This document shows, piece by piece, positions 15,808 through 64,000 of a DNA stretch of 64,000 nt (its first letter is position 1; each line of letters starts with the position of its first letter). Where the stretch lies: NCBI GenBank assembly GCA_963810095.1, contig CAWEMM010000012.1:640001-704000 (forward strand). Direction: 5' to 3'. The stretch is from an uncultured Chloroflexia bacterium. GTDB lineage: Bacteria > Chloroflexota > Anaerolineae > CG2-30-64-16. A program made the position numbers and the translations under genes. Below the pieces are notes generated by a model, which had not been told where the DNA came from, made no database searches, and saw only the letters and a program-made list of their open reading frames with translations.

Positions 15808-15904
15808 GAATGGAACACAGATTGGATTGATTGAACTGATTTGCCTGATGTTCTCCTATAAGATCAGGTAAATCGGCCAGATCAGTCCAATCAGCGTCCC
15901 ATTC
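15808..15904. repeat. Family A palindromic intergenic repeat, copy 1
   Basis: gaatggaacacagattgg...ccaatcagcgtcccattc between convergent genes. Confidence 0.85.
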
Positions 15905-23095: not shown

Positions 23096-23196
23096 TGAAA
23101 TAGGACACTGATTGAACGGATCGGACTGATGATCACGATCTTTACCCAAAAGACAGTGCAAATCAGTTCAATCAGTTCAATCTGCGTCCCATTTCA
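23096..23196. repeat. Family A palindromic repeat, copy 2
   Basis: tgaaataggacactgattgaac...gttcaatctgcgtcccatttca. Confidence 0.85.
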
Positions 23197-24061: not shown

Positions 24062-24125
24062 GATTTCACCTCCAGGAAGTCGTCTGTTGGTTGCTTTGCG
24101 GCCAGAGCCGCCCGGGGAGTCCGGT

Positions 24126-46220: not shown

Positions 46221-47947
46221 ATGAAAGCACGAAACGCTCACAGGCGGAGTTTCGCCGTCCTGCTTCTCGTCGTGGTCTTGATCGCCACGCTCGCTGTCGT
46301 CCTGGGTAGCCCCGCCGGCTCGCCCGCCAGCGCGGCGCGCGCCGCTGGGACCCGCTGCGCCCCTGGTGTCATCCAACGGTTGGACACAGGTCTTCTCCGT
46401 GCCGCCCTACCCCAACGGCGCGGAGTTTCACTTCTACGGCATGACGTTCTCGAGCCGCACCACCGGCTTTGCCTACGGCGGCGACACGTGGGACCCTCAG
46501 ACTAATCCGGGCCGGGTGTATCGCACGAAGGACGGCGGCGCGACGTGGGAATTGGTGCTGCAGAACAACGGCTGGAAGATCGGCATGGCGTGTACCGACG
46601 AGCTGCACTGCTGGGTCGGCGGGCGCTACGGGCAGATCTACTACACCAACGATGCCGGCGATCACTGGCTGAGCGCAAGCGAGTACACGTGGCAAGGAAT
46701 TGACGATTATCCGACGCCTCCCGTCCAGACCCCGGTTCCGTTTGCCAAGTGGATCCGCTCGGCGGGTGTGGCTCCGAACGGCAACCCGGTCGTTTTTGGC
46801 GCAACCGACAACACCATTCTGCACTCGAAGGACGGCGTCAACTTCTACAACTACTGGCCCATGTTGGGCTGGTGGTCGGCCACCTGGTCGGTAGCCTGCC
46901 CCACGAGCACCATCTGCTATGGCGGCCAGATCAACCGCTTCATCGTGAAGTCGACGGACGGCGGCGATACCTGGACCATGCCGGCCTACGCCAGCGACGC
47001 GACGCACCAACTGCCTGGCGGACAAATATCCGAATCCCGATCCGGACCTCCAGGGCGGTATTCAGCGCCGGTACTACGGGTTGGCGTTCCTCGACGAGAA
47101 TTACGGGTGGGCCGTGGGCAGCTGCGGGATGATTTTCCGTACCCGTAACGGTGCGGCCAGCCGCTGGGAGCGGCAGATGCCCACCCTGTCAGAGGAAGTT
47201 CAGCTGCGCCGTGTCGAGGCGTTCAGCACCAAGAGCGCGATCACGGTGGGCGGTCAGAATCCGAACCCGGCCGAGCCAAGTGAGGCGCAAAATGCGCTCA
47301 TCTTTCGCACGACGGACGGCGTGAACTGGAGCCCTGTAACTGCGCCCGACACGAGCGAGTTGCACGGCTTGGCCGCGTTCGCGGATGCAACGTTCGTGGC
47401 CGACTGGTCGGGCAAGGTGTGGCGCTGGGACGGCGAGCTCGTGCCCGTTCCACAAGCCACCAATACCCCGACAGCCACGCCGACGGAGACCCAGACGCCG
47501 ACTCCGACTGCCAGCGCGACACCCACCGAGACGCCCGCCGTCACGCCAACCGCCACCTCAACCGAGATTCCGACCACGGGCAGCATCGAGGCGTTCGCGT
47601 TCTATGATGCGAATCTGAACAACAAGCCCGACCAGGGCGAGGCCCCACTGCCTGGCGTCGGCTTCACGCTTTCGACCGATGAGGTCACCGTCGCGACCGG
47701 TGTAACTGGGGTAGACGGCCGCTATGTGTTCGTCAACCTGCAGCCCGGCTCATACGAGGTCGCTGAGACCACGCCACCGCAGGGCTACACGCCCGTGCGG
47801 GTCACCCTCCTCGTCGCGGTCGCGGCAGGTTCGGGACCGGTCTTGCCTTTCGCACATACCATGAGCACGGTGACGCCCTACCCGAGCGCCACGCCGACGG
47901 GCGCCGCGCTCCCCATGCGGACGTGGCTCCCGATGCTGGTGCGCTGA
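46221..47947 (+). CDS. Secreted Ycf48/BNR beta-propeller protein with SdrD-B-like domain (frameshifts near 46365 and 47010-47080)
   Basis: T.DGG.TW repeats; PT linker; FYDANLNNKPDQGEAPLPGV...GRYVF.NL.PGSY; C-terminus WLPMLVR. Confidence 0.75.
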
Positions 47948-48194
47948 CAGGGACGAATGAACCACAAAGGCACCAAGACACCAAGAATCTATCCGAAAAC
48001 TCGCCGGCGCAGCAGCCCGGCCAGCGCACTTTCGGATGGATCCTGAGGGCCCCCGCGTGGCTCTGCGCCCGGCTGGTTAGCGTCCCCGCGGGCAGAACCT
48101 GATTATCGTCATTTTCCCGTAGGGCAACTCGTGCTAAACTCACTTTGTTTGGCGTCGAAGCGGCGCCTGAGCACCCCTGCCATATTCGGAGGAA

Positions 48195-48398
48195 ATGATG
48201 TACGTTGTGACTGTTGATGTCGCCAAGTGCGAAGCCTGCGGCGACTGCATTGATGCATGCCCGTCGGAGCTCATGGCCCTGGTCGAGGAAGAAGGCAAGA
48301 AGTATGCCATGTTCAAGGGCGACCCCGACGACTGCATCGCCTGCTATTCGTGCGAGTCGACCTGTAACGAAGGCGCAGTGACTGTCACCGAGGTCTGA
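48195..48398 (+). CDS. 2x[4Fe-4S] ferredoxin
   Basis: CEACGDCIDACP and CIACYSCESTC; GGAGG RBS. Confidence 0.92.
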   Translation: MMYVVTVDVAKCEACGDCIDACPSELMALVEEEGKKYAMFKGDPDDCIACYSCESTCNEGAVTVTEV

Positions 48399-48481
48399 TC
48401 GGGCTGACCGGTCGCTTTTCGTGTAATGCAAAATGCGGGCTTGCGCCCGCATTTTGCGTTACAAGCAGCCGTTGCCCCGGC

Positions 48482-49963
48482 CTACGCGGCCAGCGCGGGC
48501 GCAGCCGCACCCGACGACTCGGGCGCCCGCACCCCGCGCAAGGCCAGCACCGACACCAGGAACATCACGCCGAAGATCCCAAACAGCAGGACGTAACCGG
48601 CGCCGGGCACGCCCGGCAGCCGCAGCGTCACGTAATCGGCAATGGGGCCGCCGATGTACGCGCCGACCGCGCCCGCACCCGCACCCGCCAGGTTCGAAAT
48701 CCCCAGGTACTTCCCTGCCTCCGCACCGGGCACGATCCGGGTGCCCAGCGCCCAGTTGGCCGTGAAGAAGAACCCCGTCGCAATGCCGATCAACGTGCCG
48801 CCGATGTAGATCACCGTCATGTTGGGCGCGAGCAGGGCAATGAGCACCCCGAGCGCAGCGACGACCCCGCTGATCTGGAGCAGCCGCTTGTGCCCGAAGC
48901 GGTCGCCCAGGAACCCGCTCGGGATGGCCGCGATGAGGATGAAGACGCCGATTACCGTCATCAGCAGGGCCGCCGGCCCCGCCGCCTTCTCCCGCTCGAG
49001 CCCCAGCCGGCCCTGCAGGAAATAGATCGCAAAGGTCGACAGGTTGGTTGTGCCGACCAGGAACGCCAGGCGGCTGACGACCCACCAGGTGAACGACGGG
49101 TTGGCCTGCGCGGCCCGGTTGCCGATGCTGATGCGCACGCTGACCCAAACGCCGATGGCGACCGCGACCAGCATGGCCGCGATCCCGATCAGTCCCATCA
49201 GCGGCATGAGTGTTAGCGCCGAGTCGAGCGAGCCGAACGGGCCTGCCAGTTGCTTCACGGCCCAACCCAGGCCGAGGATGATGGCGGTGAAGACGGCCGT
49301 CATCGCCAGCAGCCGCAGGATCGAGCTCCAGTCAAACGGAGGCGCGTCTTCGCGGCTCAGCGGCCGCTCTTGCACCAGCATGGTCAGGAGCATGGAGACG
49401 AGCAGGATCACCGCTGCCAGCCCCAGCGCGGCCCACAGGTTGCCCCCGGCAATCAGGCGTGCGATGGTAAATGAGACCAGGATCAGGGGGATCGGGATTT
49501 CAAGCACCGCTTTGATGGCCGAGGCCCGCCCGCGCTTCTCGTCGGGCACAATGTCGGGGATGAGGCCCTGCTGTGCGCCGTGCGCGGTGTTGGCGGCGAC
49601 CGACTGCAGGATAGCGATGACGAAGAGGAACCAGAAGCCCGCCATCCCGAGCATCCCCGCCGAGACGCCGGTCAGGCCGATGAAGACGAGCATCCCCAGC
49701 GTCCCCACGAAGATGAAAGGCCGTCGCCGGCCGATCGGGGAGGTGTTCCGGTCGGAGAGCATGCCCATGACCGCCTGCCACAGCAGCGCGACCATGAGGC
49801 TCCACAGCCGCAGCTCGCCCAGGCGGGTGCCCTTGGTCGCTTCACCCACGAAGTTCTGCACCAGCAGGGGGAACACGAGACCGTTGGTCTGCGAAAGGGT
49901 CGTGAGCGCGAGGAAGAAGATGTTGATGGTGATGTAGTCGTACCAGCGCAAACGCCGCGTCAT
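48482..49963 (-). CDS. MFS transporter (GPH/SLC45-like)
   Basis: GMLSDRNTSPIGRRRPFI, LIPDIVP, GFLGDRFGHK. Confidence 0.88.
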   Translation of the reverse strand: MTRRLRWYDYITINIFFLALTTLSQTNGLVFPLLVQNFVGEATKGTRLGELRLWSLMVALLWQAVMGMLSDRNTSPIGRRRPFIFVGTLGMLVFIGLTGVSAGMLGMAGFWFLFVIAILQSVAANTAHGAQQGLIPDIVPDEKRGRASAIKAVLEIPIPLILVSFTIARLIAGGNLWAALGLAAVILLVSMLLTMLVQERPLSREDAPPFDWSSILRLLAMTAVFTAIILGLGWAVKQLAGPFGSLDSALTLMPLMGLIGIAAMLVAVAIGVWVSVRISIGNRAAQANPSFTWWVVSRLAFLVGTTNLSTFAIYFLQGRLGLEREKAAGPAALLMTVIGVFILIAAIPSGFLGDRFGHKRLLQISGVVAALGVLIALLAPNMTVIYIGGTLIGIATGFFFTANWALGTRIVPGAEAGKYLGISNLAGAGAGAVGAYIGGPIADYVTLRLPGVPGAGYVLLFGIFGVMFLVSVLALRGVRAPESSGAAAPALAA

Positions 49964-50010
49964 GGGGCCTCCTTGGCTCGAGGAGTCGGGGGGAGGGCGG
50001 ACGGGGAACG

Positions 50011-50241
50011 CTATCCCCCTCCCATCGGTGGGTAGAATTCTATCACATCCCGGTCTGTCACCGGGGGGTGATCCCACTGCGCCAGCCGGCGGTTGACCGC
50101 AATCACGGCCACTTCGGCGGGGGGCACGCCCAGTCGGGCCGCGAGGTCGCCCAGGGAGACGGGTTGCGGCTGAGCCAACTCCAGCCAGTCCCGCTTCTCC
50201 CTGTCATACCAGCTCAGGTGTCCACCCAGATGTACGCGCAT
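50011..50241 (-). CDS. moaD: MoaD/ThiS sulfur carrier
   Basis: 76 aa ubiquitin-like protein ending PPMGGG; directly after aor. Confidence 0.85.
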   Translation of the reverse strand: MRVHLGGHLSWYDREKRDWLELAQPQPVSLGDLAARLGVPPAEVAVIAVNRRLAQWDHPPVTDRDVIEFYPPMGGG

Positions 50242-50247
50242 GGATGA

Positions 50248-50342
50248 GAATGGGACGCAGATTGAACTGATCGAACTGATTTTGCCGATTTTTTAGTCGA
50301 ATCATGGGGATCAGTTGAATCAGTCTAATCAGCGTCCTATTC
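50248..50342. repeat. Family A palindromic repeat, copy 5
   Basis: gaatgggacgcagattgaactgatcgaactgat...atcagttgaatcagtctaatcagcgtcctattc; overlaps the aor stop codon. Confidence 0.88.
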
Positions 50343-52267
50343 AGTGCCTCCCGTGGCAAGCTTCTCTGCAGCCCAGCCGATGCCGAGCGCTTCCAGCCGT
50401 TCGCGTGTGGGAATGCCGGTCTCCGTGTCCCAGCCCTTGATTTCATACAGGTCGGTCAGCGCGCGCTCGAAGTCTTCGCGGGGGTATGCGACGCCGGCCA
50501 GCGCGCCCCCTTCCAGCGGCTGGAACAGCCGCTCGGGCAGCGTGTCGTCCTGCCGGGTGCGCCCCTCCCGGGCATTGAACACCCGGGCGAGGTTATTGGC
50601 GCGCTCGCCGATCCGCATCAGCTCGTCCAGCGTGACATCCCAGCCCGGTGGCCGCATGCACCGTCTCCACCACGTCGGGAATCGCGATGAACGAGCGCGG
50701 CGCGGGCCCGAAGTAGCACAGCCCGCTCGTCTTGCCCCAGTTGTTCCAGTGCTCCATCAGCGTGTAGTACTCGACCTTGCGCCGGCTGAGGTCGCGCGGG
50801 GCCAGCGGCTCGGTCACGCCCAGCGGCTCGACGCCCTTGAACTGGAGGGAGTCCGGGTTGGCCAGCACGGGGTCGTGGAATGCCGTCAGGTGCTCGGCGC
50901 CGGTCTCGGAGGTGGCATATGACAAGCCCACGCCCACCTTGCCGCGCGGCTCGTGCATGGCCAGCTCCTGCCCCTTCACCTGCATGGCAAAGAGCGGTGC
51001 GTCGCCCCCGATCGCTTCCGCGGCCCGCTTGCTCCCTTCGGCCAGCAGGTTGCCGATGCCCTCCCGGCGCCCGATCAGCTCCACGCAGCGGACCATGGCC
51101 GGGGCGTTTCCGAAGCGGAGGTCGAGGCCGCCCGTGTCCTCCAGCCCAATCAGCCCGTGCTCGAAGCATTCCATGGCGAATGCGACGGTGGCGCTGCACG
51201 AAATCGCGTCCATCGTGAAGCGGTTGCACAGCTCGTTGGCCTTCGCCACGGCCTGCAGGTCGTCGATGCCGCAGTTGGAGCCGAAGCCGGCGACCGCCTC
51301 GTACTCGGGCCCGCCGTAGTTGTCGCTCACCTGGTACGCGGTCGCCGGCTGCGCCGCCGACCTTCACTTCGCGCTTGCAGCGCACCGCGCACGCGTAGCA
51401 GCTGCGCCGGGCGCTCAGGATCTCCTTCTCGTAGGCTTCCCAGCGCAGGTTGTCGACGCCCTCGAACCCGCCGCTGCGGAAGTTGCGGGTGGGCAGGATG
51501 CCCCCGGCGTTCAGCCCCCCGGTGAGCCCCGGCGTGCCCTTCACCTGCAGGTCCCAGCTCAGCGGGTTCTCTTTGACCTCTTTGGCAAGCTTCTTGCCGA
51601 AGTTCGCGATCCACGGCCCATCTTCCGCCATGTCGACGTAGCGCGTGCTGCCGCGCACGGCGACGGCCTTCAGGTTCTTCGACCCCATGACCGCGCCCAT
51701 GCCCGTGCGCCCGTTGAAATGGCGCAGGTCGTTCGTGATCGCTGCGAACCGCACGCCCTTTTCGCCGGCCTCGCCGATCTGCAGCACGCGGACCAGCTTA
51801 TCGCCCAGCTCGCCGCGGATGGTCGCCTGGGCTTCCTCCGGCTCGCGGCCCCACAGGTGCTCGGCCGGGCGCAGCTCGACCTGGTCGTCCTTGATCCACA
51901 GGTACACCGGTCGCTCGGCCCGCCCCGTGATGACCACGGCCTCCCAGCCGGCCATCTTGAGCTCGGGGCCCCAGAACCCCCCGGCCTCCGACTCGCCGTA
52001 GCCGTCCGTCAGCGGCGACTTCCCGATGGCCGTGAAGCGGGTGGCGGTGGAAAAAGGCGCGGCGGTCAGCAGTCCGTTTGCCAGGATCAGGATGTTCTCG
52101 GGGCCCAGCGGGTCGACATGTGCGGGCAGTTCTGATAGGAGCAGGTAGGCGCCGAGCGCTTTGCCGCCCGGGTACATGCGATAAGTCTTTTCGTCGAGGG
52201 TCTGCGTAGCGATTGAGCCGCTCGCCAGGTCGACGCGTAGGATTTTTCCGGTGTAGCCAAATGGCAT
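50337..52267 (-). CDS. aor: W/Mo aldehyde:ferredoxin oxidoreductase (frameshifts near 51340 and 50655)
   Basis: GYTGKILRVDL, KSPLT, GRTGMGAVMGSKNLKAV, CYACAVRC, GPEYE, VKGQELAMHEPR, DDTLPERL. Confidence 0.93.
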
Positions 52268-52281
52268 GATTGAGCCTCGGT

Positions 52282-53080
52282 TTATGAATGGTGCGGGTCG
52301 CCGGCGACGGGCTGCCCGAACTGGCGCGCGAGGAACCGGCGGGTGGCTTCGAAAAGCTCCCCGCGTTCGCAGTCGAGCGCCACGCAGTGCGTGGACCGGT
52401 CGAGCCAGAGCAGTTCCTTATCGGTCGAGCCGACCCGGTCGTAAATCTCCTGCGGCGCGGCCGGGTCGACCGTGCGGTCCAGCCGGCCGTGGACGATGAG
52501 GATCGGCTGGCGGATCTCGGGCAGCAGCGGGCGCACGGCAGCCTGCAGGCGCAGCAGTTCCCGGATGCCCCGTGCCGGCCGCACGTCGTATCCTTGCCAA
52601 AGCGCATCGGACTCGGCGGGCGCGCCGGGCTTCGGATGCACCATCACGTCGAAGGGCGCGAGCGCATACGCGGCCCGTTCCTGGAATGAGCTGATGGCGA
52701 GCTTGAGCGCGGGCGCGTACGAGAGCACCGCCGCAATCTCCGGGTGGGTCGCCGCCAGGTGCAGCGTCAATGCCGCGCCCGTCGACTCGCCGCCAACCGC
52801 AACCCGGCCGCAGCGGGTCTTCAGTGCCACGTACGACGGCTGTGACGGCCCGCAGCCAATCGCGCCAGCCGTAGTGCCCGAGGTCTTCCGGCTCCGTGCC
52901 GTGCCCGGGCAGCAGGGGCGCAGAGACGGTGTAGCCCGCCGCGTGCAGGTTTTCCGCCAGCGGCCGCATCTCCGCAGTCGTCGCGGTCAGCCCGTGCACG
53001 AGCAGCACGCCGTCCGGCCCCCCGTCCAGGCAGAAGGCGTCGCCGGGCAGGTGGTCGTTGACAAGAAGTCTCTTCGACAT
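52282..53080 (-). CDS. Alpha/beta hydrolase, carboxylesterase/monoacylglycerol-lipase-like (frameshift near 52835)
   Basis: LLVHGLTAT, LPGHGT, nucleophile elbow GESTG, HGRLDRTV, STH. Confidence 0.85.
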
Positions 53081-53091
53081 GCAGGATCCTT

Positions 53092-53162
53092 ACCACTAAG
53101 ACACAAAGAACCGAAGACGCACGAAGTGATTGTGCAACTTCGTGTCTTGGTGTCTTTGTGGT
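53092..53162. repeat. Family B palindromic repeat
   Basis: accactaagacacaaaga...tcttggtgtctttgtggt. Confidence 0.8.
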
Positions 53163-53174
53163 TAGTCGGACGAC

Positions 53175-54092
53175 TTATGGCAGCCACTTCTTTGCCAGCC
53201 GGCATACCATCGTGTAGGCCGGGTCGTAGACGTTGCCCAGGTCGTAGTCCACGCACTGGCCCAGGAGGATGCTCGCCTCCTGCATGGTGAGGCCGTAGTC
53301 GGCGGTCAGCCAGCGGAGCATTTCGGTCGTGGCGTGCTGCAGGGCCTGGTCGAGCGGCCGGGCGTTGCCAACCGTGAAGATGTGCTCCGCATTCTCGCCC
53401 CTGGGCCACCGAACCGGCGCGTGCGCCTCCTGGCCCTTGATCACCCGGAGGCGGAACTCGACCTCGAACGAAATCTCGATCCCCGTTCCCACCACCTCGC
53501 CGTCGCCCTGCACCGCGTGCCCGTCGCCGATGAAGAAAAGCGCGCCCGGCACCGCAACGGGGAAGTATGCGGTCACGCCCGCACAGAAGCCCCGGTAGTC
53601 CATGTTGCCGCCGTGCGGTCCGGCCGTGGACGTGGAGATGGCCTGGCCGCCGGCGGGCGCGACGCCGAAGCAGCCCACCATCGGCGCAAGCGGCAGGGCC
53701 AGCCGGCCGAGCTTGGGGAACGGCTCCTGCGGCGTGGCACAGCCGGCCGCTGCGTCGACGTCCCAGATCAGCGTTTCGGCCTCGGGCAGCGAGGCGACAA
53801 AGCTCGGATCGACCACGCCGGGCGCGACGACGTCACGGGTGAAGCCGGTCGGCCGGTTGGGCGCCAGGCGGATGAGATCGACGGCCAGGGTATCGCCGGG
53901 CTCGGCCGGCTCGACATAAAAGGGACCCGTCTGCGCGTTCGGGCGGCCGCCAGCAAGCTGGCCGTGGTGGTCCCAGCCGTGCGCGTCGATGGTCGTGGTC
54001 ACGACCGTATCGCCGTCGGCGACCGTGAGAACGGGCGGATGCGAGCCGAGCGTGTTGTAATAGCGGGTTGGTGCGAAGTGATGAGTCGTCAT
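53175..54092 (-). CDS. Acetamidase/formamidase family protein
   Basis: TGPFYV..AEPGD, HGGNMD, GDGHAVQGDGEV.GTGIE. Confidence 0.9.
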   Translation of the reverse strand: MTTHHFAPTRYYNTLGSHPPVLTVADGDTVVTTTIDAHGWDHHGQLAGGRPNAQTGPFYVEPAEPGDTLAVDLIRLAPNRPTGFTRDVVAPGVVDPSFVASLPEAETLIWDVDAAAGCATPQEPFPKLGRLALPLAPMVGCFGVAPAGGQAISTSTAGPHGGNMDYRGFCAGVTAYFPVAVPGALFFIGDGHAVQGDGEVVGTGIEISFEVEFRLRVIKGQEAHAPVRWPRGENAEHIFTVGNARPLDQALQHATTEMLRWLTADYGLTMQEASILLGQCVDYDLGNVYDPAYTMVCRLAKKWLP

Positions 54093-54096
54093 AACA

Positions 54097-55379
54097 CTAG
54101 CGTAACACCGGGATTGTGGCGTTGGCAAATGGCATGACGCCAATGCGCGCGCCGGATGGCAGGCGGGCCAGCGCCTCGTCCACGGCCTGCTGGAGCGAAG
54201 GGGCGGGGTTCAGCAGCAGGCGCTCGGCCAGGCTGCGGTCCATGTCTGACACGAACGTAAGGCGGACGCGGGCCGCGTCGCGTGCGATCTGCCACGCCTT
54301 GTGCGGGCCGATCCGGTAACCCTCCGCCGCATAGCGGTCGAGCACCTGCTCGTGCGTCGTGAAGCCGCCGTCGAGCATCCAGCGCTCGTAGGCTGCGCTG
54401 CCCGTGCCTTCCCCGCAGGCCGCGGCCAGGATCACTGCGCCGCTCAGAGCGGGAACCAGCCGGGTCACCAGGGTGGCGTGCGCGAGGGCCTTTTGCGCCT
54501 GGTACAGGTTGATGTCCTTCGGATGGCCGCCGGGCGACACGATGACCAGGTCGAACGGGCGGCTGACTTCCACCGCGTAGATGGCGCGCAGCAGGGGGAT
54601 GCCCGCCTGCATCACGTCGACCGGGCGCCCGGCCAGGACGTGCGCGATCTGCTTGTGGTCATTCAGGATCGCGTTGAGCGCGTAGTCCACCCCGATCAGC
54701 CGCCCGATCTCTTCGACATCCTGCCGGCAGGGGTTGTCCGCGTAGGAGTTGATCTCGGCGCCGGCCGCGGTCATCATGGCATGGTTCGTGTTGATGGTGG
54801 CCTTCGCCGTCAGGCCCACCGCCGCGCTCTTGACCCCGCCCGAGAAGCCCATGAACTGGTGCGGCTCGATGTTCCCCACGACCACCCGCAGGTCCGCCTC
54901 CCACCAGCGCCGGTTGACGCTGACGGGCGTGCCGCGGGCCGTCTCGCCGAGGTAGATCAGCTCGCCGTCCGCATTGCAGTCGTGGCTGTACACGGGGTAG
55001 CGGGCGAGGATCTCGGCCGGCAGGATGGCCGGGAATTCCTCGGGCGGCATGGGGGCGTGGGTGCCGGTCGCCACCAGCAGCGTGATGTTCTCGGGGAGGA
55101 ACCCGAGCCCTTCGAGCCGGGCGAGCAAGGGCGGCAGAAGGTAGCGGTGGGGGACGGGCCGGGTCTTGTCGTTAACCGCGACGACAGCCCTCCGCCCTCG
55201 GTTCGTGGGCAGGGGCGCGGCGTCCAGGGCCGCCTCGACTGCCGCCAACGGATCGGGCGAGGGCGCGGCCTCGCGGGGCGCGAGCAACTCCACCCGGCGT
55301 CCAGCGCGGCGGGCAGGTCGAACTCGACAAATCCTTTCCCGTAGGGAAGCTGGTAGCGGGTCAACGGCGCCTCATGCAA
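54097..55379 (-). CDS. larA: LarA-family nickel-pincer-nucleotide hydroxyacid racemase (frameshift near 55295)
   Basis: LPYG, NDKTRP, ATGTH, IEPHQFMGFSGGVKS, NH, GGHPKDINLYQAQKA. Confidence 0.88.
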
Positions 55380-56485
55380 ACAGCCGGATCAGCAGCAGGC
55401 TAAACAGCGCCAGGCAGCCGCCCACGGCAAAGCCGAGCGCGAGCGGCTTGAGCCCGGTGCGCCGGATGCTCGCGGCGTTGGTGCTCAGCCCGATGGCCGA
55501 GAGGGCGAGCAGGATGCAGAGCTTCGTCACCTCGTCCAGCAGCTTCAGCACGTTGGCGGCGGCTACCAGGCTGCCCGGGTCGTTCACGTTGACCGGTGTG
55601 AAGCCGAGCGCGTTGCCGAGCGACCGGACCAGGCTCATGCCGACGAAGCCGAGCACGAACCAAGGCACGATCTTGCCGATCGACAGCTTGACCGACGCAT
55701 CCCGCTTCTGCTGCGCCCGGGCGTACACCAGCCCGATGCCGAGGATCAGCGGGGCCATGAGCGTGTTGCGCACGAGCTTGACCACCGTCGCAACGTCGCG
55801 TGCCGCGTCGCTGAACGCCGCGCCCGCGGCCACCACCTGCGACGTGTCGAGGATCGCAGTGCCGGCCCACAGCCCGAAGATCCGGTCGCTCATGCCCACC
55901 AGGTAGCCGAACGTGGGGTAGAGCAGCACGGCCAGCGTGCCGAAGAAGGTGATGGTGGCGACCGCATAACTCACATCCTCGTCCTCGGCCTCGATGACCG
56001 GGGCCGTCGCAATGATGGCGGAGTTGCCGCAGATGGCGGTGCCGACGCCGATCAGCGCGGCCAAGCCGGGGGCGGATACGGAGGGCGCGCCCCAGCAGGT
56101 AGGCGAGCGACAGGGCAAAAGCCACGCACGCGAGCACCAGCAGCAGCGCAGACCCGCCGATGTTGATCACGTCCTGGAAGCTGAGCCGCACGCCCAGCAG
56201 GATAATGCCAAAGCGCAGGATGCGGGTCAGAGCGAACTTGATGCCCGGCTCGAAGCGGGCGGAAAACCCGATCGCGTTGCGGACGAAGAACCCGAGCAGC
56301 ACCGCGATGAAGACTTCGCTCACCGCCCGAGCGATCTCGGGCGAGGGGATCAGCCCGTGCAGGTAGCGCGCGATGAGCGCCACGGCCAGCACCAGGAACA
56401 GGCCCGGCAGGGCAGGGCGCAGCTCCGCGCCGATCTTGCGGAGCTCGGCAACAAGTGGATTGACGTGCGTTGTAGGGGCGATCAT
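55372..56485 (-). CDS. YeiH / putative sulfate(sulfite) exporter family protein (frameshift near 56075)
   Basis: LRFGIILLG, GTAICGNSAI, GTAILDTSQVVAAG, KLVRN, PWFVLGF. Confidence 0.88.
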
Positions 56486-56496
56486 GGCAGCTTCCC

Positions 56497-56561
56497 GACC
56501 TTCGGGGTTTCGACCGCGAGCAACCTGACCGGGTCAGGCGCTCGGTGAAACCCCGAAGGTC
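56497..56561. repeat. REP-like palindrome
   Basis: gaccttcggggtttc...gaaaccccgaaggtc with an internal cctgac/gtcagg hairpin. Confidence 0.7.
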
Positions 56562-56576
56562 TCGGATTGGAGCGGG

Positions 56577-58086
56577 TTACGCGCTCTCGTAGAGCTTCGT
56601 CAGGACGAACTCGTCGTGGCGCAGGGCCTCGGCGGCGGTGAAGCGGCCGTTGATGGTGTGTTCCAGCACCTCCATCGCCTTGTCGGCGCCCTCGTCCAGG
56701 TTGATCTCGATGCGGAGGAGCCCGGTCAGGTCCACGTCGATGTGCTCGGACATCGTCGCGACGGTCAGCGGGTTCGCACACAGCTTGATGACGGGGATGA
56801 TCGGGTTGCCGATGATGTTGCCCTGCCCCGTGGGGAAGTAATGGACGACCGACCCGGCTGCCGCGCACAGGGTGACCATTTCGGCCGCGGCCGACGACGA
56901 ATCCATGAAGTGCAGGCCCGGGCCCTGGGGCTCCACGGCCTTGTCGAGCACGCCCACGACGGTGCAGCGCCCCATCTTCTGGATGTTGCCCATGGCCTTC
57001 TCTTCGATGGTGGTCAGGCCGCCGCGGATGTTGCCTTCGGTCGGCTGCGAGCCCAGCAGGTCGACGCCCTTGCTCTTCACGAGCGCCTGGTAGTCGTTGA
57101 AGAACTGCATGAACCCGTCGGCCACTTCCTGCGTCGCGCACTGGTTGGCGATGATGTCCTCGCCGCCCGTGACCTCGGTCGTCTCGCCGAAGATGAGGGT
57201 TGCCCCAGCGTCCGCCAGCCGCTCGAACACCCGGCCGACCGTGGGGTTCGCCGCCAGGCCCGACGTGGTGTCCGACTCGCCGCACTTGGTGCTCATGCAC
57301 AGCTGGTCGACGGTGAACGGCTCGCGCTGCAGCTCGGTGGCGTACTGCACGAACTCCATGGCCTTGCGCGCCGCCATCTCGATGGTCTTCAGGTCGCCGT
57401 AGCGCTCGATGCTGAACCCGGCGACCGGCTTGCCCGTCTCGGCGATCGCATCGACCACCCGCTGCGTCCACTTCGGCTCGATGCCGATGACGATGGCCGC
57501 GGCCACGTTCGGGTTGCGCCCGGTGCCCGCCAGCGTGCGGAAGGTCAGCTCGAGGTCCTCGCCGAACTGCAGCCGGCCGTATGGGTGCGGCAGGGCCATC
57601 GTGCCCTTGATCAGGCTGGCAACGCCGTTGGCGGCGGCATTGGAGATGTCGTCGATCGGCAGGATGATGACGTGGTTGCGGACGCCGAAGCGGCCGTCCG
57701 GGCGCTTGTAGCCCAGCAGCTTCATTTCCTCCGGCTTCTTGCCGCCCAGGGCCAGCCGCTCGGTGTGCTTCTGGACGATTTCCGGCGCGGGCGCCTCTTC
57801 CAGGCTCCACGCGCATCGTCTTCAGGTTTTGCGTGTGGACGTGGCCGCCGCAGGGGATGGCCGCAGTCGTCTGGCCGATCGTGCGCCCGTACTTGAGCAG
57901 CTTGTGCCCCGCCGGCATGTCGCGCATCGCAACCTTGTGGCCCAAGGGCACGTCGTTCACGACCTTGAGGCTGCCGTGCTCCTGCCCCTCCAGCGTGACG
58001 ACGCCCACTTCCTCGCCCGCGTGCAGGTCGCGCACCGCCACGCCGACATCGTCGATGAGTTCGTGAATCAGGATTCCGTGTGCCAT
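56577..58086 (-). CDS. suyAB: (2R)-sulfolactate sulfo-lyase SuyA (SAF domain) plus SuyB, probably one fused ORF with a 1-nt error near 57810
   Basis: SAF domain DVPLGHKVA..KYG..HVHTQN; SuyB signatures LPIDDISNAA, HPYGRLQFGEDLEL, KCGESDTTSG, SQPTEGNIRGGLTTIEEKA, MDSSSAAAE, EFVLTKLYESA. Confidence 0.9.
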
Positions 58087-58113
58087 GATGAGTGCCTTTC
58101 GTAAACGGGATTG

Positions 58114-58206
58114 GAATGGGACTCAGTTAACTGATCAAACTGATCGACCTGATCTTTCTTGAATATCATGAAGATCAGTCCGATCCGTTCGATCTGTGTC
58201 CCATTC
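58114..58206. repeat. Family A palindromic repeat, copy 6
   Basis: gaatgggactcag...gatctgtgtcccattc. Confidence 0.85.
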
Positions 58207-58214
58207 TGCGTTCT

Positions 58215-59431
58215 CTACAAGTCGATCCCGTTTTCGCGGAGCAGCTCGTCGATGAGCACGGGCTGCCCGGTCTTGACCGATTTTTCGGCCGCCGCGCCGA
58301 CGACGATGGACCAGAAGCCCTCGGCGGCTGTGGCCGCTGTCCTTGGCGCACCGTCGATGTTGTCCACAAAGCTGACGTGCTCGAAGTAGGTCGCGCCGTG
58401 GTGGCCGCTCGCCTGGATGAAGCCGGGTAGCACGGCGTGCCGATGCGGGTGGGCTTGCGGTCGCCGCACTTGATCTCGATGGTCGTGTCGGGCTGGCCCG
58501 CCGGCAGGAAGTCCTCGTTCTCCGACACCTTCAGCCGGCCGTCGTCGCCGCAGAGCACCATCTCCTCGTAGAACATGGGCGAGAACATGCAGAGGTTGAA
58601 GGTGGCCCGCACGCCGTTGGCGTAGTTGACGATGACGAACGGCGTTGTCGATGATGTCCGACTTTTCGCCCTCGTACTCGAAGTCGAGGAAGTTGACCGC
58701 CGCGCTGCCGCTCGCATACACGCTGACCGGCCGGGCGCCGGCGAACAGGTTCATCAGGTCGAAGTAATGGCAGCACTTCTCGACCAGCGTGCCGCCCGAG
58801 TACTTCGAGAACTTGTTCCACTGCTTCACCTTGTCGAGGAAGGGGAAGCGGTGCTCGAGGATGCTGATCGTCTTGATGTCGCCGATGGTCTTGCGCTCCA
58901 GCGCCTCGTGGATGGCCTCCACGTAGATGGGCTTGAAGCGGTACTGCAGCCCGATCTGGAAGACGGCGGGGTGCCGCTGCGCCATCTGCATGATGGCATA
59001 GGCGTCGCAGACCGTCGTCGCCATCGGCTTCTCGAGCAGGATGTGCTTGCCCGACGCGGCGGCCACCCGCACCACGTCGAGATGCGTGAAGTTCGGCGTG
59101 CAGATGATCAGGCCGTCGACCGCCGGGTCGTTGCACGCCGCTTCGAGCGAGTCGTACACGACCAGCTTTTCCCGCCCGGGCGGAACTGGGCGTGCATCCC
59201 CTGGGCGCCGGCAATGCTCAGCGGGTTCGGGTCGTACACGCCGTGGATGACCGCGCGGCCCTCCATGCCCGTCACCCGGATGTGCTCCTGCCCGTTGACG
59301 CCCGTTCCGATCACGTTGAAGCGGTAGCGCTCCTCTGCCGGTGCGAAGAGGTAGCGGTCTTCGGCCGGGATGTACGCGAAGACGGGGCTCCGCGCAAAGA
59401 CCTGGTTGCGGAATTCTTTACCGATTGGCAT
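58215..59431 (-). CDS. Gfo/Idh/MocA-fold protein, probable NAD+-dependent sulfoquinovosidase (GH188, SqgA-like); several frameshifts
   Basis: IGTGVNG, LEKP, GLQYRF, HRFPFLDKVKQWNKF..SGGTLVEKCCHYFDL, GHHGAT; located in a sulfoglycolysis operon. Confidence 0.75.
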
Positions 59432-59446
59432 AGCGTTATCCTCGAC

Positions 59447-60111
59447 TTATTCGTACGGCGTCTTGTCCCAGAAGCTGCAGAACCGCTTCAGCCCCTCGTC
59501 CGTCCACGGGTGCTGGACCATGCCCTTGTACACCGCGAGGCCCGCAGGTCACGATGTCCGCCCCGGCCACGGCCGAGTCCACGATCTGCCGGCCGTTGCG
59601 CACCGCACTGACGATGATCTCGGTCGGGAACTCGTAGTTGTCGCGCATCATCACGATTTCCTGGATGAAGCGCACGGTTTCTTCGCCGGTCTCTTCCTTC
59701 CAGCCGATGAAGGGCGAGACGAACGTCGCGCCGAGCCGCATGGCCTGCAGCGCCTGGCTGCCCGAGAAGACGAGGGTCAGGTTGACGCGGATGTTCTTCG
59801 GCCCGCAGGCCGCGCAGCGCCCGGAACCCGGGCTCGGTGGCGGGCAGCTTGATGACGAAGTTGGGGCTGAGCGCGGCCAGCTTCTTGCCCTCGGCCACCA
59901 TCTCGCGCCAGTCGTCGTAGTGCGGGTTGACCTCGACCGACACCGGCAGGTCTGTCCCCTTGAAGATCTCCGCGATCTCCTTGATCACGACCATGAACGG
60001 CTTGCCCGAAGCCTGCACGTGCCGGGGGTTCGTCGTCACGCCGTCGATCCCCACCATCTCCAGCGCGTACGTGATCTCGTCCGTGATCGCGCTGTCCAGG
60101 AAGAACTTCAT
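59447..60111 (-). CDS. sftT: Sulfofructose transaldolase (frameshifts near 59800 and 59540)
   Basis: MKFFLDSA, DGVTTNPRH, Schiff-base VIKLP, SPFIGWKE, VRNGRQI. Arg in TNPRH, Trp in GW and Arg in RNG match my recollection of the sulfonate pocket in Bacillus SftT/SqvA. Confidence 0.85.
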
Positions 60112-60248
60112 CCTTGCCTCCGAATGTGTGTCGTCGCCCGCGGGACCAATGTCGAGGCTACCACAAGGTGCCCGATGACATGGCTTCACAAAGCTCTGCA
60201 ACTATCGCCTGGCTTCCGTTTGTCTGTGTCTTTGTGTTAAAGTCATGT

Positions 60249-61197
60249 CTACCTGCCGCCGAAGCCCGTCGTTGCGACGCCCTGCACGAAGTAGCGCTGG
60301 GCGAAGACGAACACGATCAGGATCGGGATGAGCACCGCCGTCGACGCCGCGAACAGCAGCTCCCAGTTCCCCGTCATCTGCACGTCGTTGAGCGCGCGCA
60401 AGCCGAGCGCCAGCGTCCAGTTTTGCCGGCCGTTGATGTAGATCAGCGGCTGCAGGAAGTCGTTGTAGCTCTGCAGGAACGCGAACACCGCCACCGTCGC
60501 GATGACCGGCTTGGACAGCGGCAGGATGATGTTGAAGAGGATGCGGACGCGGCTTGCGCCGTCGACCAGCGCGGCTTCCTCCAGCTCCATGGGGATGGTC
60601 TTGAAGAACTGCCGCATCAGGAACACGTAGAGCGGCGCCAGCGCCAGCCAGAACGGCACGGTCAGCGGCAGGTAGTTGCGCGGCAGGTCGAACAGCGTGC
60701 CCGGCAGGTCGAGCACGTTGCCCGGCTTCGTCCAGCCAAGCGTCCTGAACTCGATGAACATCGGGATCATCGTGATGATCTCGGGCAGCATCATCGTGCC
60801 GAGCAGCATGCCGAAGAAGAAGTCGCGGCCGGGCCAGCGCAGCCGGGCGAACGAGTAGGCCACCAGCGACGACGACAGCACCACGCCCAGCACGGTCAGG
60901 AGGGAGATCTTGAAGGTGTTGACCGCAAACGTGGCGAAGGGCAGCAGCTGCCATCGCGTCGGCGTAGTTGCGCCACTGGGGCACGGCCGGGATCCACACG
61001 ATCGGGTTGGCGAAGATCTCGGGCTGGCTCTTCAGCGACGAAGAGACCATCCACAGCGTGGGGCCCAGGAACGTGAGCAGGATCAGCGTCATCAGGACCT
61101 GCAGGCCGATGATGCCCAGCCGGTCCATCGTCTTGCGCCGCGATTTGGCGGCCGCGTATTTTTCGGTCTCGACCGTTGGCGTGGCAGGGATGTCCAT
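60249..61197 (-). CDS. Carbohydrate ABC permease (MalG-like), frameshifted
   Basis: AYSFARLRWPGR, EAA motif ELEEAALVDGA, LPLSKP. Confidence 0.9.
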
Positions 61198-61206
61198 GGG
61201 GCGCTC

Positions 61207-62118
61207 CTACGACTCGTAATACACCCAGCGGCTCGACACGTAGAACTGCGACGATGGTCAGGCCGATGACGATGATGAAGAGCTCCCACGCCAGCGCGGA
61301 AGCGTAGCCCATGTTGAAGAACTGGAAACCGTTCCGGTAGATGTTGAGCACGACGAACAGCGTCGAGTTTTCCGGCCCGCCGTCGGTCATGATCAGCGCG
61401 GGGACGAACGTCTGGAACGAGTTGATGATCGCGATGATCATGTTGTAAAAGATCAGTGGCGTCATCAGCGGGACGGTGATCTTGAGGATCGAGGTGAACT
61501 TGCTCGCGCCGTCGATCTGCGCGGCTTCCTGCAGCTGGACCGGGATGTTGCCGAGGCCGGCGATAAAGATCACCATCTGGCGGCCGATCATCCAGAACGA
61601 CATGAAAGATGAAGGCGGGCTTGGCCAGCTCGGGCTTGAGCAGCCACGGCTGTGCCGGGATGCCCACCCAGCCGAGGATGGTGTTCAGGATGCCGAAATC
61701 GGGGTGCAGCACCCGCTGCCACACGACGGCCGTCGCGACGACAGGGATGATGATGGGCAGGTAAAAGCCCGCCCGGTACATCGCCCGGAACTTGAGCGGC
61801 TGGGTCAGCGCCAGTGCCAGCGAGAAGGAGATGACAAGCTGGAACGGCACGGCAAAGAGGGTGTAAATCGCGCTGTTCACCAGCGCCTTGCGCGCCAGCT
61901 CGTCGGTGAACACCCGCGTGATATTCGCCAGCCCGGCGAACAGCCGGCGGCGAGAGCAGGTCCCATTTCTGAAACATCAGGTAAATGGAGTAGAGCATGG
62001 GAAATGCGACGAAGGCGAAAAAGCCGATCAAGAACGGCGCAGCAAACAGGTAGCCTTGCAGCCATTCGCGGCGCTGAAATGACGACACGCGGCGCCTGGG
62101 TTGCGTTACAGCGGCCAT
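61207..62118 (-). CDS. Carbohydrate ABC permease (MalF-like), frameshifted
   Basis: GYLFAAPF, QEAAQIDGA, ITVPLMTP, MGYASALAW. Confidence 0.9.
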
Positions 62119-62136
62119 GCCGTACCTCCCGAAGCA

Positions 62137-62254
62137 GAATTGGACTCAGATTGAACTGATCTGACTGATTTGCCTGATCCTTCACCCTGGGCTGGCAGGG
62201 TAATCACGAACAAGATCAGGTGATCAGTCCGATCAGTCCAATCTGCGTTCTATT
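62137..62254. repeat. Family A palindromic repeat, copy 7
   Basis: gaattggactcagattgaactgatctgactgat...atcagtccgatcagtccaatctgcgttctatt, between the binding-protein and permease genes. Confidence 0.85.
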
Positions 62255-62257
62255 GCA

Positions 62258-63674: not shown

Positions 63675-63748
63675 GTGCCTTTCCCTCCCTGGGTGGTGTT
63701 GAGATCGCGTCGTGGGGCCCGTGCGCAGCACGCCGCCTCATGACAGGA

Positions 63749-63799
63749 GTTGACTTACGACAGGCGTTGACCTACGACAGCTGTTGACTTACGACAGGC
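63749..63799. repeat. Three 17-bp tandem units spanning the isomerase stop codon
   Basis: gttgacttacgacaggc / gttgacctacgacagct / gttgacttacgacaggc. Confidence 0.8.
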
Positions 63800-64000
63800 G
63801 CAGCACGGGCAGGTCGAGCAGCCGCGCCAGCGCCAGCAGGGCGTCCAGGTGGTCGCCGTAGGTCAGGGAGATGTGGTGGTCCAGCCCTTCGGTCATGATG
63901 GTGTCGAAGCACCTCTTGGGCCGGGCGGTCGAACCGGATGCACGCCGGACGTGCCCGTGTAGCTCATCGGCGCGTGCTGCATTTCGCCCGCCGCCACGAC
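63789..64000 (-). CDS. L-fucose/L-arabinose isomerase family protein, C-terminus only; probable sulfoquinovose isomerase
   Basis: Manual translation (not in the ORF track): GEMQHAPMSYTGTSGV...TIMTEGLDHHISLTYGDHLDALLALARLLDLPVLRLS*; upstream of the transaldolase operon. Confidence 0.65.
   Translation of the reverse strand, partial: RGGGRNAARADELHGHVRRASGSTARPKRCFDTIMTEGLDHHISLTYGDHLDALLALARLLDLPVLRLS

Follow-up and report, generated by a model that had tools for sequence, protein, structure and literature searches.

A candidate ferredoxin-linked route for sulfolactaldehyde oxidation in a sulfoquinovose operon of uncultured Anaerolineae

Sulfoquinovose (SQ), of which about 10 billion tonnes are produced per year (PMC10755693), is one of the commonest organosulfur compounds, and in the characterised routes found in the literature searched it is nicotinamide enzymes that oxidise or reduce sulfolactaldehyde (SLA). 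The locus studied here, which lies in a window of 64,000 nucleotides (the whole stretch of DNA analysed) from an uncultured Anaerolineae bacterium, raises the question of which enzyme would oxidise SLA in an operon that encodes an aldehyde:ferredoxin oxidoreductase (AOR). The original prediction was that AOR possibly replaces an NAD-dependent SLA dehydrogenase and passes its electrons to a ferredoxin encoded nearby. Judging from sequence and gene context, we give a probability of roughly 0.55 to the reading that AOR would oxidise SLA in a ferredoxin-linked step, with a LarA-type enzyme then racemising the sulfolactate.

The operon is identified as an SQ (sulfo-transaldolase, sulfo-TAL) plus sulfolactate-lyase cluster, because of the identities of its SqgA, transaldolase (TAL) and SuyAB genes and because of the neighbours of suyB across phyla, namely, GH31, SqgA, TAL, PfkB with DeoC, aldehyde dehydrogenase (ALDH), Ldh_2, 2-Hacid_dh, YeiH and TauE. 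All of its genes lie on the minus strand, with the following contents. First, downstream of a ROK-family regulator gene there is a fucose-isomerase-like gene (weak PF02952 match), a candidate SQ isomerase present in 37 of 80 suyB loci, whose 3' end occupies 63792-64000 and which extends to about 65394. Second, domain matches identify a sugar-type ABC importer (60252-63737), made up of a solute-binding protein (62267-63737) and two permeases (61250-62118 and 60252-61197). Third, an FSA/TalC-type transaldolase (59450-60201; PF00923; two frame breaks) is a candidate sulfofructose transaldolase. Fourth, structure matches assign 58218-59446, with at least one frame break, to an SqgA-type (GH188) NAD+-dependent sulfoquinovosidase: the orthologue from the relative G007 matches the SqgA structures 8QC2 and 8QC3 (PMC10755693) at about 1e-62, and other Gfo/Idh/MocA structures at 71 bits or less. 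Among the 80 suyB loci, SqgA occurs alone in 32, GH31 alone in seven, both in one and neither in 40.

The second half of the operon would serve sulfolactate. A SuyAB-type (2R)-sulfolactate sulfo-lyase (56580-58086; Pfam SAF, GD_AH_second and GD_AH_C), named suyB in the JGI annotation, is a fused single chain of 502 residues in the relatives G001, G004, G007 and others, rather than two subunits, and carries one frame break at about 57810 in the window. Its identity is 65% with the UxaA-family proteins paired in the Cupriavidus pinatubonensis hpsN-hpsO cluster and 53.5% with a Paracoccus versutus pair that adjoins a gene for a sulfate exporter; with the other UxaA proteins it does not exceed 38%. 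Domain matches place 55378-56485 (one frame break) in the YeiH / Cons_hypoth698 'putative sulfate exporter' family, as a SuyZ-like protein; this family also adjoins suyAB in P. versutus. Then come a LarA homologue of the LarAH5 family (54103-55371; NCBIfam NF052595), a proposed sulfolactate racemase; an FmdA/AmdA-family gene (53178-54143; Pfam) which, on comparison with the relatives' loci, is limited to those of the source genus; and an alpha/beta hydrolase (52285-53080; Pfam Hydrolase_4; one frame break). The AOR gene and a MoaD-like gene terminate this long run.

The AOR gene, which we call type 1, covers 50340-52267 (minus strand), and a Pfam scan of the window gave AFOR_N (E 1.3e-74) and AFOR_C over 50337-52267, so that the architecture of the family, usually of about 600-630 residues, is present when summed over three frames. 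Its orthologue P0122, of 633 residues, aligns over its full length with the Pyrococcus furiosus enzyme 1AOR (E 6.5e-117). The motifs C-x2-C-x3-C, GGPEYE, AEH and a distal Cys are all retained and aligned with the corresponding 1AOR positions; we take them to supply the four Cys ligands of the [4Fe-4S] cluster, as well as the Glu and the His close to the metal in PfAOR numbering. Thus, AOR is predicted to be an intact, single-subunit, PfAOR-type aldehyde:ferredoxin oxidoreductase, and the metal of its cofactor is probably tungsten. It has the same Fe-S and pterin-region motifs as 1AOR, a member of the homodimeric, 'archaeal-type' branch as described in PMC6365974, and differs from it in that its gene is part of a defined catabolic operon, in a Chloroflexota genome of mesophilic type, and in its clade-specific basic residues. 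The window scan found no AorA or AorC subunit genes near AOR, whereas AorABC of Aromatoleum aromaticum is reported to have three subunits, to be able to use NAD+ and to have MoaD-like genes in its operon (PMC6365974); a co-encoded MoaD-like protein is what both systems have in common.

As printed, and as the original prediction did not mention, AOR is read in three frames, namely, 50618-52267 (AFOR_N and AFOR_C positions 3-84), 50593-51363 (AFOR_C 89-304) and 50337-50657 (AFOR_C 300-385), with breaks at 51341-51353 and 50643-50647. Two frameshifts could mean that the gene is inactive, a true pseudogene. The same kind of break, however, affects 12 of the 16 operon genes, and rpoB of the same assembly is likewise split, into two frames. 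When compared with four orthologues, the window has 13 additional nucleotides at 51341-51353 (12 in frame plus one) and one additional nucleotide at 50643, and in the relatives' orthologues the whole gene is one open frame. Within one study, three runs gave near-identical short-read contigs, three in all, that span 50643-50647 and are all one base shorter there; one contig of about 90% identity bridges 51251-51394, keeping the 12-nucleotide insert and leaving out one base at 51337. The extra base is therefore absent from every bridging contig, the cofactor-binding motifs are retained, and GC3 in adjacent frames is of coding type (0.85-0.91). On the grounds of the intact orthologues, the short-read contigs and the breaks in the other operon genes and in rpoB, we conclude that the AOR frameshifts are most probably assembly errors and not decay; a genuine pseudogene is very improbable.

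The genes around AOR bear on how it might work. Pfam confirmed AOR, the MoaD-like gene and the nearby ferredoxin at the positions originally given for them. The MoaD/ThiS-like small protein (50014-50241, minus strand; PF02597, E 1e-07), a putative pterin-cofactor maturation factor, has a ThiS-fold match spanning 50011-50241 and a Gly-Gly-Gly C-terminus, and follows AOR in 51 of the 71 metagenome loci in which the downstream sequence extends for at least 400 nt. The view that aor and moaD belong to the same gene run is upheld by a gap of 14 nt between AOR and the gene upstream of it, and by gaps of 0-6 nt from LarA through MoaD in the intact relative G007. A scan of 47900-64000 for promoters and terminators found no site of either kind on the minus strand between LarA and MoaD, which is uninformative, the whole scan giving one promoter-like site (1.3 expected) and six terminator-like sites (9.4 expected). 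Beyond MoaD lie an MFS transporter of the GPH / MFS_2 type (48485-50077, minus strand; Pfam MFS_1 and MFS_2), whose orthologue aligns in one frame across 48512-49963, and, after a terminator-like hairpin at 48396-48414, a 67-residue 2x[4Fe-4S] ferredoxin (48195-48398, plus strand; Fer4_7 and other Fer4 models) that converges with the operon end. This ferredoxin has conserved flanking synteny with DUF4340 and ABC-2 genes. It is found in four of 19 relatives' loci, each time adjoining the MFS gene, and in none of 80 metagenome AOR loci; it is not co-conserved with AOR, and the proposed link between the two is not supported.

We then turn to the aldehyde-oxidising enzymes that such operons have in other bacteria. 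That neither an ALDH of the SftD/SlaB type nor an SLA reductase is encoded in the operon, as originally observed, was borne out by profile scans: PF00171 had no match in the frames scanned between 48 kb and the end of the window, nor in the 19 kb beyond position 64000, and SLA reductase is absent from both the operon and the contig. The window encodes a single beta-hydroxyacid dehydrogenase (23213-24232), which has an unrelated gene neighbourhood at a distance of 26 kb. The cluster therefore lacks the NAD-dependent SLA dehydrogenase or reductase by which a canonical sulfo-TAL cluster is recognised. A missing ALDH proves little by itself, because 25 of 45 sulfoglycolytic clusters elsewhere have neither ALDH nor AOR; three clusters have ALDH and AOR together. 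The source genome (G000) has about seven ALDH loci, none of them on contig C12, and their products are just 30-38% identical to cluster-linked ALDHs and are not their orthologues.

These unlinked ALDHs introduce a different explanation, namely, that AOR is a general, broad-range aldehyde scavenger whose AOR-MoaD pair drifts among loci, often beside LarA, while an unlinked NAD(P)-dependent ALDH oxidises SLA. The frequency of clusters elsewhere that have no aldehyde oxidiser at all agrees with it, as does the distribution of AOR. Among 37 genomes of the order, the type-1 orthogroup is present in 27, ten of which have no SuyAB orthologue; seven unlinked type-1 loci have heterogeneous neighbours; and 68 of the 80 metagenome AOR loci have no SQ gene, the remaining 12 having SQ genes and, in every case, no ALDH. 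The link between AOR and SQ is not exclusive, and the type-1 orthogroup is wider than the pathway. The original notion that AOR possibly replaces an NAD-dependent dehydrogenase is thus a candidate reading, given the ALDH loci of G000 and the AOR-bearing genomes that have no SuyAB.

Several observations nevertheless argue against a mere scavenger or for AOR as part of SQ metabolism, besides the tight gaps inside the operon and the non-orthology of the G000 ALDHs. First, the neighbourhood survey and the phylogeny called for at the outset show AOR recurring in SQ clusters in at least five gene orders (SuyAB-LarA-AOR, AOR-MoaD-TAL, perm-AOR2-TAL-SuyAB, LarA-M24-AOR and TAL-TauE-M24-AOR). Second, the SQ clusters of Chloroflexota hold AORs of two lineages, with about 35% identity between them, which points to independent recruitment of the second; the type-1 sequences form a clade (25 of 25 sequences, support 0.91; FastTree, SH-like supports, midpoint rooting). 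Relatives of the type-2 AOR at 52-60% identity, on the other hand, are SQ-linked in 0 of 14 cases. Third, SQ genes occur at seven of the 23 metagenome AOR loci that are flanked on either side by 3 kb or more, which, by a rough estimate and not a computed control, is far above chance for a gene occurring about once per genome. Fourth, all 18 genomes of the order with the isomerase-like marker gene have type-1 AOR, as do 17 of the 19 with SuyAB, the two exceptions being 65% and 70% complete. AOR is also found in 15 of the 80 suyB loci, 12 of them without ALDH, and beside AOR-MoaD ten of the 19 relatives' loci have LarA and eight have SuyAB. The relatives counted are kin, and one type-1 locus set shares genomes with the 19-locus and 37-genome counts. 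Taken together, we regard a general scavenger as unlikely, and AOR as probably a broad-range enzyme that was recruited to the SQ operon, rather than a dedicated SLA enzyme.

Since LarA accompanies AOR in 23 of the 27 AOR-bearing genomes, the two could also form a module of their own, which would convert an aldehyde into a 2-hydroxy acid and then into its racemate, for another substrate, and which was merely joined to the SQ operon. Candidate substrates would be lactaldehyde, glyceraldehyde or a product of the hydrolase and MFS genes, and glycerate or lactate are substrates of some LarA homologues (PMC11770544). The genus g4 fits such a module, as its four genomes all have AOR and LarA and lack both SuyAB and the isomerase marker; of the two g4 loci compared, G024 has AOR-MoaD-LarA together with hydrolase, MFS and ferredoxin genes, and G010 has AOR-MoaD-LarA. 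This contrasts with the type-2 AORs, which are found in SQ operons without any LarA, and with locus L199, where TAL-TauE-M24-AOR occurs without LarA or SuyAB. Moreover, gene context would tie LarA itself to sulfolactate, by its mutual exclusion with Ldh_2 and 2-Hacid_dh genes beside SuyAB: across the 80 suyB loci, LarA only is found in 23, Ldh_2 only in 26 and both in none, and LarA is also never accompanied there by a 2-Hacid_dh gene, the usual companion of ComC-type Ldh_2. We consider a separate module with another substrate quite unlikely.

The LarA protein scores 471.3 bits against NF052595 (cut-off 462), with Mar2 (6D6Z) as its best PDB match, and one LarC gene of the genome speaks for nickel-pincer cofactor synthesis. 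The same NCBIfam family includes Mar1, the LarAH5 'malate racemase' of Desulfitobacterium hafniense, which is described as having a Km for L-malate of 55 mM, as assayed with carboxylate substrates only, and for which the authors drew no link to gene context; in Table S1 of that paper, COG2721 'altronate dehydratase' heads the neighbours listed for group 5, with 19 counts and 100% (PMC7583248). In the LarA papers PMC11770544 and PMC7583248, no mention of sulfolactate was found. In Chromohalobacter salexigens, a sulfolactate 'racemase' consists of the two dehydrogenases SlcC and ComC (PMC11193023, PMC12814064). Its place in the pathway is the same, between (S)-sulfolactate and the (R)-specific SuyAB, and here a single LarAH5 enzyme would carry out the inversion.

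Returning to AOR as an SLA oxidase, the ABC system would take up SQ or SQ-glycerol, the SqgA-type glycosidase would release SQ, the fucose-isomerase-like protein would convert it to sulfofructose, and the FSA-type transaldolase would release (S)-SLA. SLA is the only free aldehyde of the sulfo-TAL route. AOR, matured with the help of MoaD, would then oxidise (S)-SLA to (S)-sulfolactate and reduce a ferredoxin; the LarAH5 nickel-pincer enzyme would racemise sulfolactate; the fused SuyAB would split (R)-sulfolactate into pyruvate and sulfite; and the YeiH/SuyZ-like protein would export the sulfur anion. In an Anaerolineae operon that would mineralise SQ, AOR is the final catalytic gene. Tentatively, two non-orthologous replacements may have come together in these bacteria, a tungsten AOR for ALDH and a LarAH5 enzyme for the SlcC/ComC pair, the latter enzyme feeding the fused SuyAB. 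As sinks for ferredoxin the genome has an [FeFe] hydrogenase at one locus and [NiFe] hydrogenases at three or more; it also has three COX1 genes, which is why anoxic use of the pathway is an assumption.

The pathway as such is known, and a ferredoxin-linked SLA step would probably be a new variant of it. The named enzymes of the sulfo-TAL pathway are SftT, SftD and SftI. The cluster has in common with the sulfo-TAL (SFT) pathway of Firmicutes (PMC11489063) an FSA-type transaldolase as the aldehyde-forming step, SLA as the C3 product, a sugar importer, a sulfoquinovosidase and an isomerase. It differs, first, in having an AOR-MoaD pair instead of an ALDH (SftD/SlaB) or a reductase; second, in a glycosidase of the SqgA/GH188 and not the GH31 type and in its fucose-isomerase-like candidate; and third, in going on to full desulfonation by LarA, the fused SuyAB and the SuyZ-like exporter. 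A precedent for the AOR step is Desulfovibrio sp. DF1, in which an AOR of COG2414, Ga0134130_130621, is inducible by DHPS and encoded together with DhpA and SlaB, and desulfonation is by SuyAB (PMC6278857). Its authors proposed in 2018 that this AOR was a second candidate for SLA oxidation, never demonstrated; the recombinant enzyme from E. coli was inactive on SLA, acetaldehyde and lactaldehyde, and the NAD-dependent SlaB is present and active (PMC6278857). Both systems have an AOR near SLA-forming enzymes and a SuyAB, the DF1 AOR being likened to ours by description and not by sequence, whereas a linked ALDH, there SlaB, is missing here. The titles and abstract openings of the papers found that name both sulfoquinovose and Anaerolinea report no SQ catabolism in Anaerolineae; a possible Chloroflexi cluster figure in PMC10755693 might already depict an AOR gene.

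If AOR does oxidise SLA, anoxic SQ degradation would yield low-potential electrons, and the energetics of SQ fermentation would shift, with extra reduced ferredoxin that could feed H2 formation or ion-pumping complexes. Sediments and digesters are rich in Anaerolineae. With such a step, sulfonate cycling would demand trace tungsten and nickel, marker-gene surveys that count ALDH-type SLA dehydrogenases would overlook such degraders, and the unexplained DHPS-induced AOR of DF1 would be settled. If both replacements hold, sulfolactate would be a plausible native substrate for the LarAH5 group, and this 'malate racemase' group would really be a sulfolactate racemase family.

Two minor features of the AOR gene deserve mention. 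Ten basic positions are conserved in type-1 AOR and rare in paralogues, including an Arg four residues after the fourth cluster Cys, and K232 alone is common to type 2; these positions may be a lead on sulfonate binding and are not evidence for it. An Rfam scan of 47900-53500 returned just two sub-threshold matches to miRNA models, and so no family at threshold for the spacer between AOR and MoaD (50242-50340), which holds a palindromic, REP/MITE-like repeat of about 95 nt that folds into a hairpin of -34.9 kcal/mol and has 117 blastn matches in the genome.

The original prediction placed this minus-strand operon in a pathway with a sulfolactaldehyde step, and that context, sulfoquinovose (SQ) degradation, proved right on the basis of its SqgA, transaldolase, SuyAB, exporter and isomerase-like genes. 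From 5' to 3', it comprises a ROK regulator gene and a fucose-isomerase-like one, each lying mostly past position 64000; a sugar-type binding protein with two permeases; an FSA-type transaldolase (TAL); a Gfo/Idh/MocA protein resembling the sulfoquinovosidase SqgA; a UxaA-family protein, which in relatives is a fused protein of 502 aa; a YeiH-family 'putative sulfate exporter'; a LarA homolog (54103-55371), whose score exceeds the curated LarAH5 cut-off; an FmdA/AmdA-like protein; an alpha/beta hydrolase (52285-53080); the aldehyde:ferredoxin oxidoreductase (AOR) gene (50337-52267); MoaD (50011-50241); and a GPH-type MFS transporter (48485-50077). A two-cluster ferredoxin of 67 aa (48195-48398; Pfam) follows on the plus strand. 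The window spans C12:640001-704000 of the source genome (G000), which near-identical proteins and contigs assign, through their source names, to the Anaerolineae.

An intact ortholog of the Gfo/Idh/MocA protein matched 8QC2 and 8QC3 at about 1e-62, with other structures of the family at 71 bits or less; PMC10755693 confirms these codes as SqgA structures and names a Chloroflexi SqgA cluster in a figure. The UxaA-family protein is, by sequence, sulfolactate lyase (SuyAB). At 65% identity it matches the large UxaA protein of a Cupriavidus pinatubonensis plasmid, where the order is hpsN, hpsO, MFS, dehydrogenase and then UxaA; the Paracoccus versutus pair, with a sulfate-exporter-family gene after it, shares 53.5% identity with the operon's protein over its two parts, versus at most 38% for the remaining plasmid UxaA proteins; and JGI applies the name suyB to close relatives of the operon's protein. 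In the neighborhoods of 80 suyB homologs from many phyla, the recurrent neighbors are permeases, the isomerase-like gene, SqgA or GH31, TAL or PfkB plus DeoC, ALDH, Ldh_2 with 2-Hacid_dh or else LarA, and YeiH or TauE. Judged from this gene content, the operon is a sulfo-transaldolase SQ operon extended as far as full desulfonation.

The isomerase-like gene (63792-64000 and on; C12:703792-705394 on the contig) encodes a conserved protein of about 450 aa, found in 37 of 80 suyB loci, with both sulfo-TAL and sulfo-EMP clusters of several phyla. Its similarity to the C-terminal domain of L-fucose isomerase is no more than weak, and the protein is a candidate SQ isomerase from a family outside Pfam coverage.

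That AOR and MoaD share one gene run, as had been proposed, is real: Pfam detects AFOR_N and AFOR_C across 50337-52267 and the ThiS/MoaD fold in the smaller gene, and 14 nt separate the start of AOR (52267) from the stop of the hydrolase gene that precedes it. The motifs C-x2-C-x3-C, GGPEYE and AEH and the distal cluster Cys are kept. A 633-aa ortholog from a genus-mate (P0122; piecewise identity 85-89%) matches Pyrococcus furiosus AOR (1AOR) along the entire length at E 6.5e-117, ahead of FOR, WOR5 and BamB, and a Pfam scan of the neighborhood found no adjoining AorA- or AorC-like subunit genes.

As printed, however, AOR is spread over three frames, whereas in relatives the whole gene is one open frame; compared with four orthologs, the window carries 13 additional nt at 51341-51353 and one at 50643. 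Contigs from four freshwater-sediment short-read runs of one study were placed on the gene. Three of them, each from a different run (0-3 mismatches over 179-226 nt), bridge 50643-50647 with one base fewer, and one contig of about 90% identity bridges 51251-51394, omitting one base at 51337 but keeping a 12-nt insert. Breaks are widespread in the source genome (G000; 6.1 Mb, 16 contigs, about 65% G+C, completeness 88.5%, contamination 4.8%): relative to intact orthologs they affect 12 of 16 operon genes, LarA, Fmd, MoaD and MFS alone being unbroken, and rpoB (G000:C14:146935-150808) is likewise split across frames. The AOR frameshifts are very probably assembly errors and, given the intact orthologs, the bridging contigs and the breaks in operon and rpoB, the gene is therefore to be read as intact. 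Single-base indels occur throughout the assembly (window 48000-64000; G000:C14:146935-150808), such that an ORF-based reading under-calls genes and over-calls pseudogenes; this caveat attaches to all gene calls of the window.

The operon was also said to lack an NAD-dependent ALDH and a sulfolactaldehyde reductase; this is borne out, and for ALDH it held past position 64000: PF00171 was absent from all frames scanned between 48 kb and 83 kb. None of the genome's approximately seven ALDH loci is on this contig, and its ALDHs are only 30-38% identical to those of 16 SQ clusters elsewhere.

Linkage of AOR to SQ genes recurs elsewhere. First, in 19 orthologous AOR loci of relatives, drawn from no fewer than five genera and rearranged in gene order, the same stretch holds LarA in 10 and SuyAB in eight. 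Second, we surveyed 37 genomes of the order, all from one family, taking as type 1 those AORs with at least 67% identity (next paralog, 51%). Type-1 AOR was present in 27, LarAH5 in 26, SuyAB in 19 and the isomerase-like marker in 18, all 18 of which have AOR. AOR and SuyAB occur together in 17 genomes, AOR only in 10, SuyAB only in two (completeness 65% and 70%) and neither in eight; the corresponding numbers for AOR and LarA are 23, four, three and seven. Third, AOR was found in 15 of the 80 suyB loci, 12 without and three with ALDH. Eight of these AORs are type 1, from the same genomes as the order survey and therefore not independent. The other seven, from six Chloroflexota and one Spirochaete (AOR 9 kb off), belong to a second lineage, type 2, which is 33-37% identical to type 1, also closest to 1AOR, devoid of MoaD, and flanked directly by TAL on one side and by a permease or ALDH gene on the other. 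In the tree, type 1 is monophyletic (25/25 sequences, SH-like support 0.91) and type 2 a distant clade (4/4, support 1.0). Type-2 relatives in a class sample had SQ genes at 3/6 loci for 64-69% identity and at 0/14 for 52-60%. Fourth, type-1-like AORs (61-75% identity) were examined in 80 metagenome loci: one or more SQ genes lie in 12 of these, none of which has an ALDH, and in 7 of the 23 that extend 3 kb or more in both directions; new orders are AOR-MoaD-TAL-isomerase...GH31-SuyAB-LarA, GH31-TAL-SuyAB-YeiH-LarA-M24-AOR and GH31-TAL-TauE-M24-AOR.

Several observations nevertheless speak against a dedicated role. Ten genomes of the order have AOR without SuyAB, including all four of one genus (G010, G024, G051, G052), which combine AOR and LarA yet lack both SuyAB and the marker; in both loci fetched from it (L016, L028; G010, G024) AOR, MoaD and LarA lie together, that of G024 adding hydrolase, MFS and ferredoxin. 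Neighbors are unrelated at seven unlinked AOR loci, 68 of the 80 metagenome loci, many of them short, have no SQ gene, and 25 of 45 sulfoglycolytic clusters, for example Nanopelagicaceae-type sulfo-EMP, have neither ALDH nor AOR. The ferredoxin, originally predicted as the AOR partner, could not be upheld as such: it occurs solely beside the MFS gene (4/19 relatives' loci), and in 0/80 metagenome loci; its flank, with DUF4340 and ABC-2 genes, is syntenic in G024. On balance, oxidation of sulfolactaldehyde would be the most economical role for this AOR, the genomic support being recurrent but non-exclusive.

As to the literature, Burrichter 2018 (PMC6278857) proposed, but could not confirm, a sulfolactaldehyde role for a DHPS-induced AOR. 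Our searches found nothing combining SQ with aldehyde ferredoxin oxidoreductase, nothing beyond a general review for sulfolactaldehyde with tungsten and, by titles and abstract openings, only unrelated work for SQ with Anaerolinea; the text of a 2026 SQ review contains no 'ferredoxin', 'Chloroflex...' or 'racemase'.

We infer that the operon's LarA is a sulfolactate racemase. SuyAB is (R)-specific and sulfolactate from SQ is taken as (S), according to PMC11193023 and PMC12814064. Beside SuyAB (80 loci, L030-L109), LarAH5-type LarA and the pair of ComC-like Ldh_2 and 2-Hacid_dh are mutually exclusive: LarA in 23, ComC-type Ldh_2 in 26, both in none, neither in 31. In Desguin et al. (PMC7583248), COG2721 is the top-listed neighbor of LarAH group 5 (Table S1; 19 counts, 100%), and the authors report 55 mM as the malate Km of Mar1, with a context link not apparent to them. 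The enzymes grouped as LarAH5 'malate racemase' may in fact be racemases of sulfolactate, an assignment for which we found no precedent among papers matching sulfolactate and LarA, checked by passages, where 'lara' was a reference-list author name, or by titles and abstract openings. The genome has one LarC gene.

A search of the 88.5% complete genome revealed no sulfite reductase of the NIR_SIR type, and export is the probable fate of sulfite. Ferredoxin could be re-oxidized by hydrogenases, for which the genome has one [FeFe] locus and at least three [NiFe] loci. Its three COX1 genes point to a facultative lifestyle.

Among the suyB loci, freshwater Actinomycetota (Nanopelagicaceae, Planktophila; L077, L087, L088, L090, L093, L094, L098, L099, L102, L104, L105, L108) have compact clusters of PfkB, DeoC-type aldolase, SqgA, SuyAB, 2-Hacid_dh, Ldh_2 and YeiH, from which ALDH and AOR are both absent. 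Pelagibacterales loci (L079, L081, L082, L095) hold SuyAB and TauE, with YeiH in 3/4 and no sulfoglycolysis genes, which suggests direct use of imported sulfolactate. A Peptidase_M24-fold protein (Pfam) of about 366 aa lies immediately upstream of AOR in L199 and L200, gaps of M24-like size separate LarA from AOR in L181, L191, L205 and L206, and the fold recurs in six other suyB loci (cluster representative L088). Counting relatives' loci in which both were found, the alpha/beta hydrolase and MFS transporter are paired in G001, G004, G007, G021, G024 and two metagenome contigs, and could act together as lipase and importer for sulfolipids. Finally, an intergenic palindrome of about 95 nt, with a hairpin of -34.9 kcal/mol and no fitting family in Rfam, is repeated throughout the genome (117 blastn hits); copies lie at 50242-50340, 58130-58207, 62136-62171, 15805-15905 and 23100-23193, three of them in spacers of the operon, and a query stretch containing the repeat also had a match in the relative G007.
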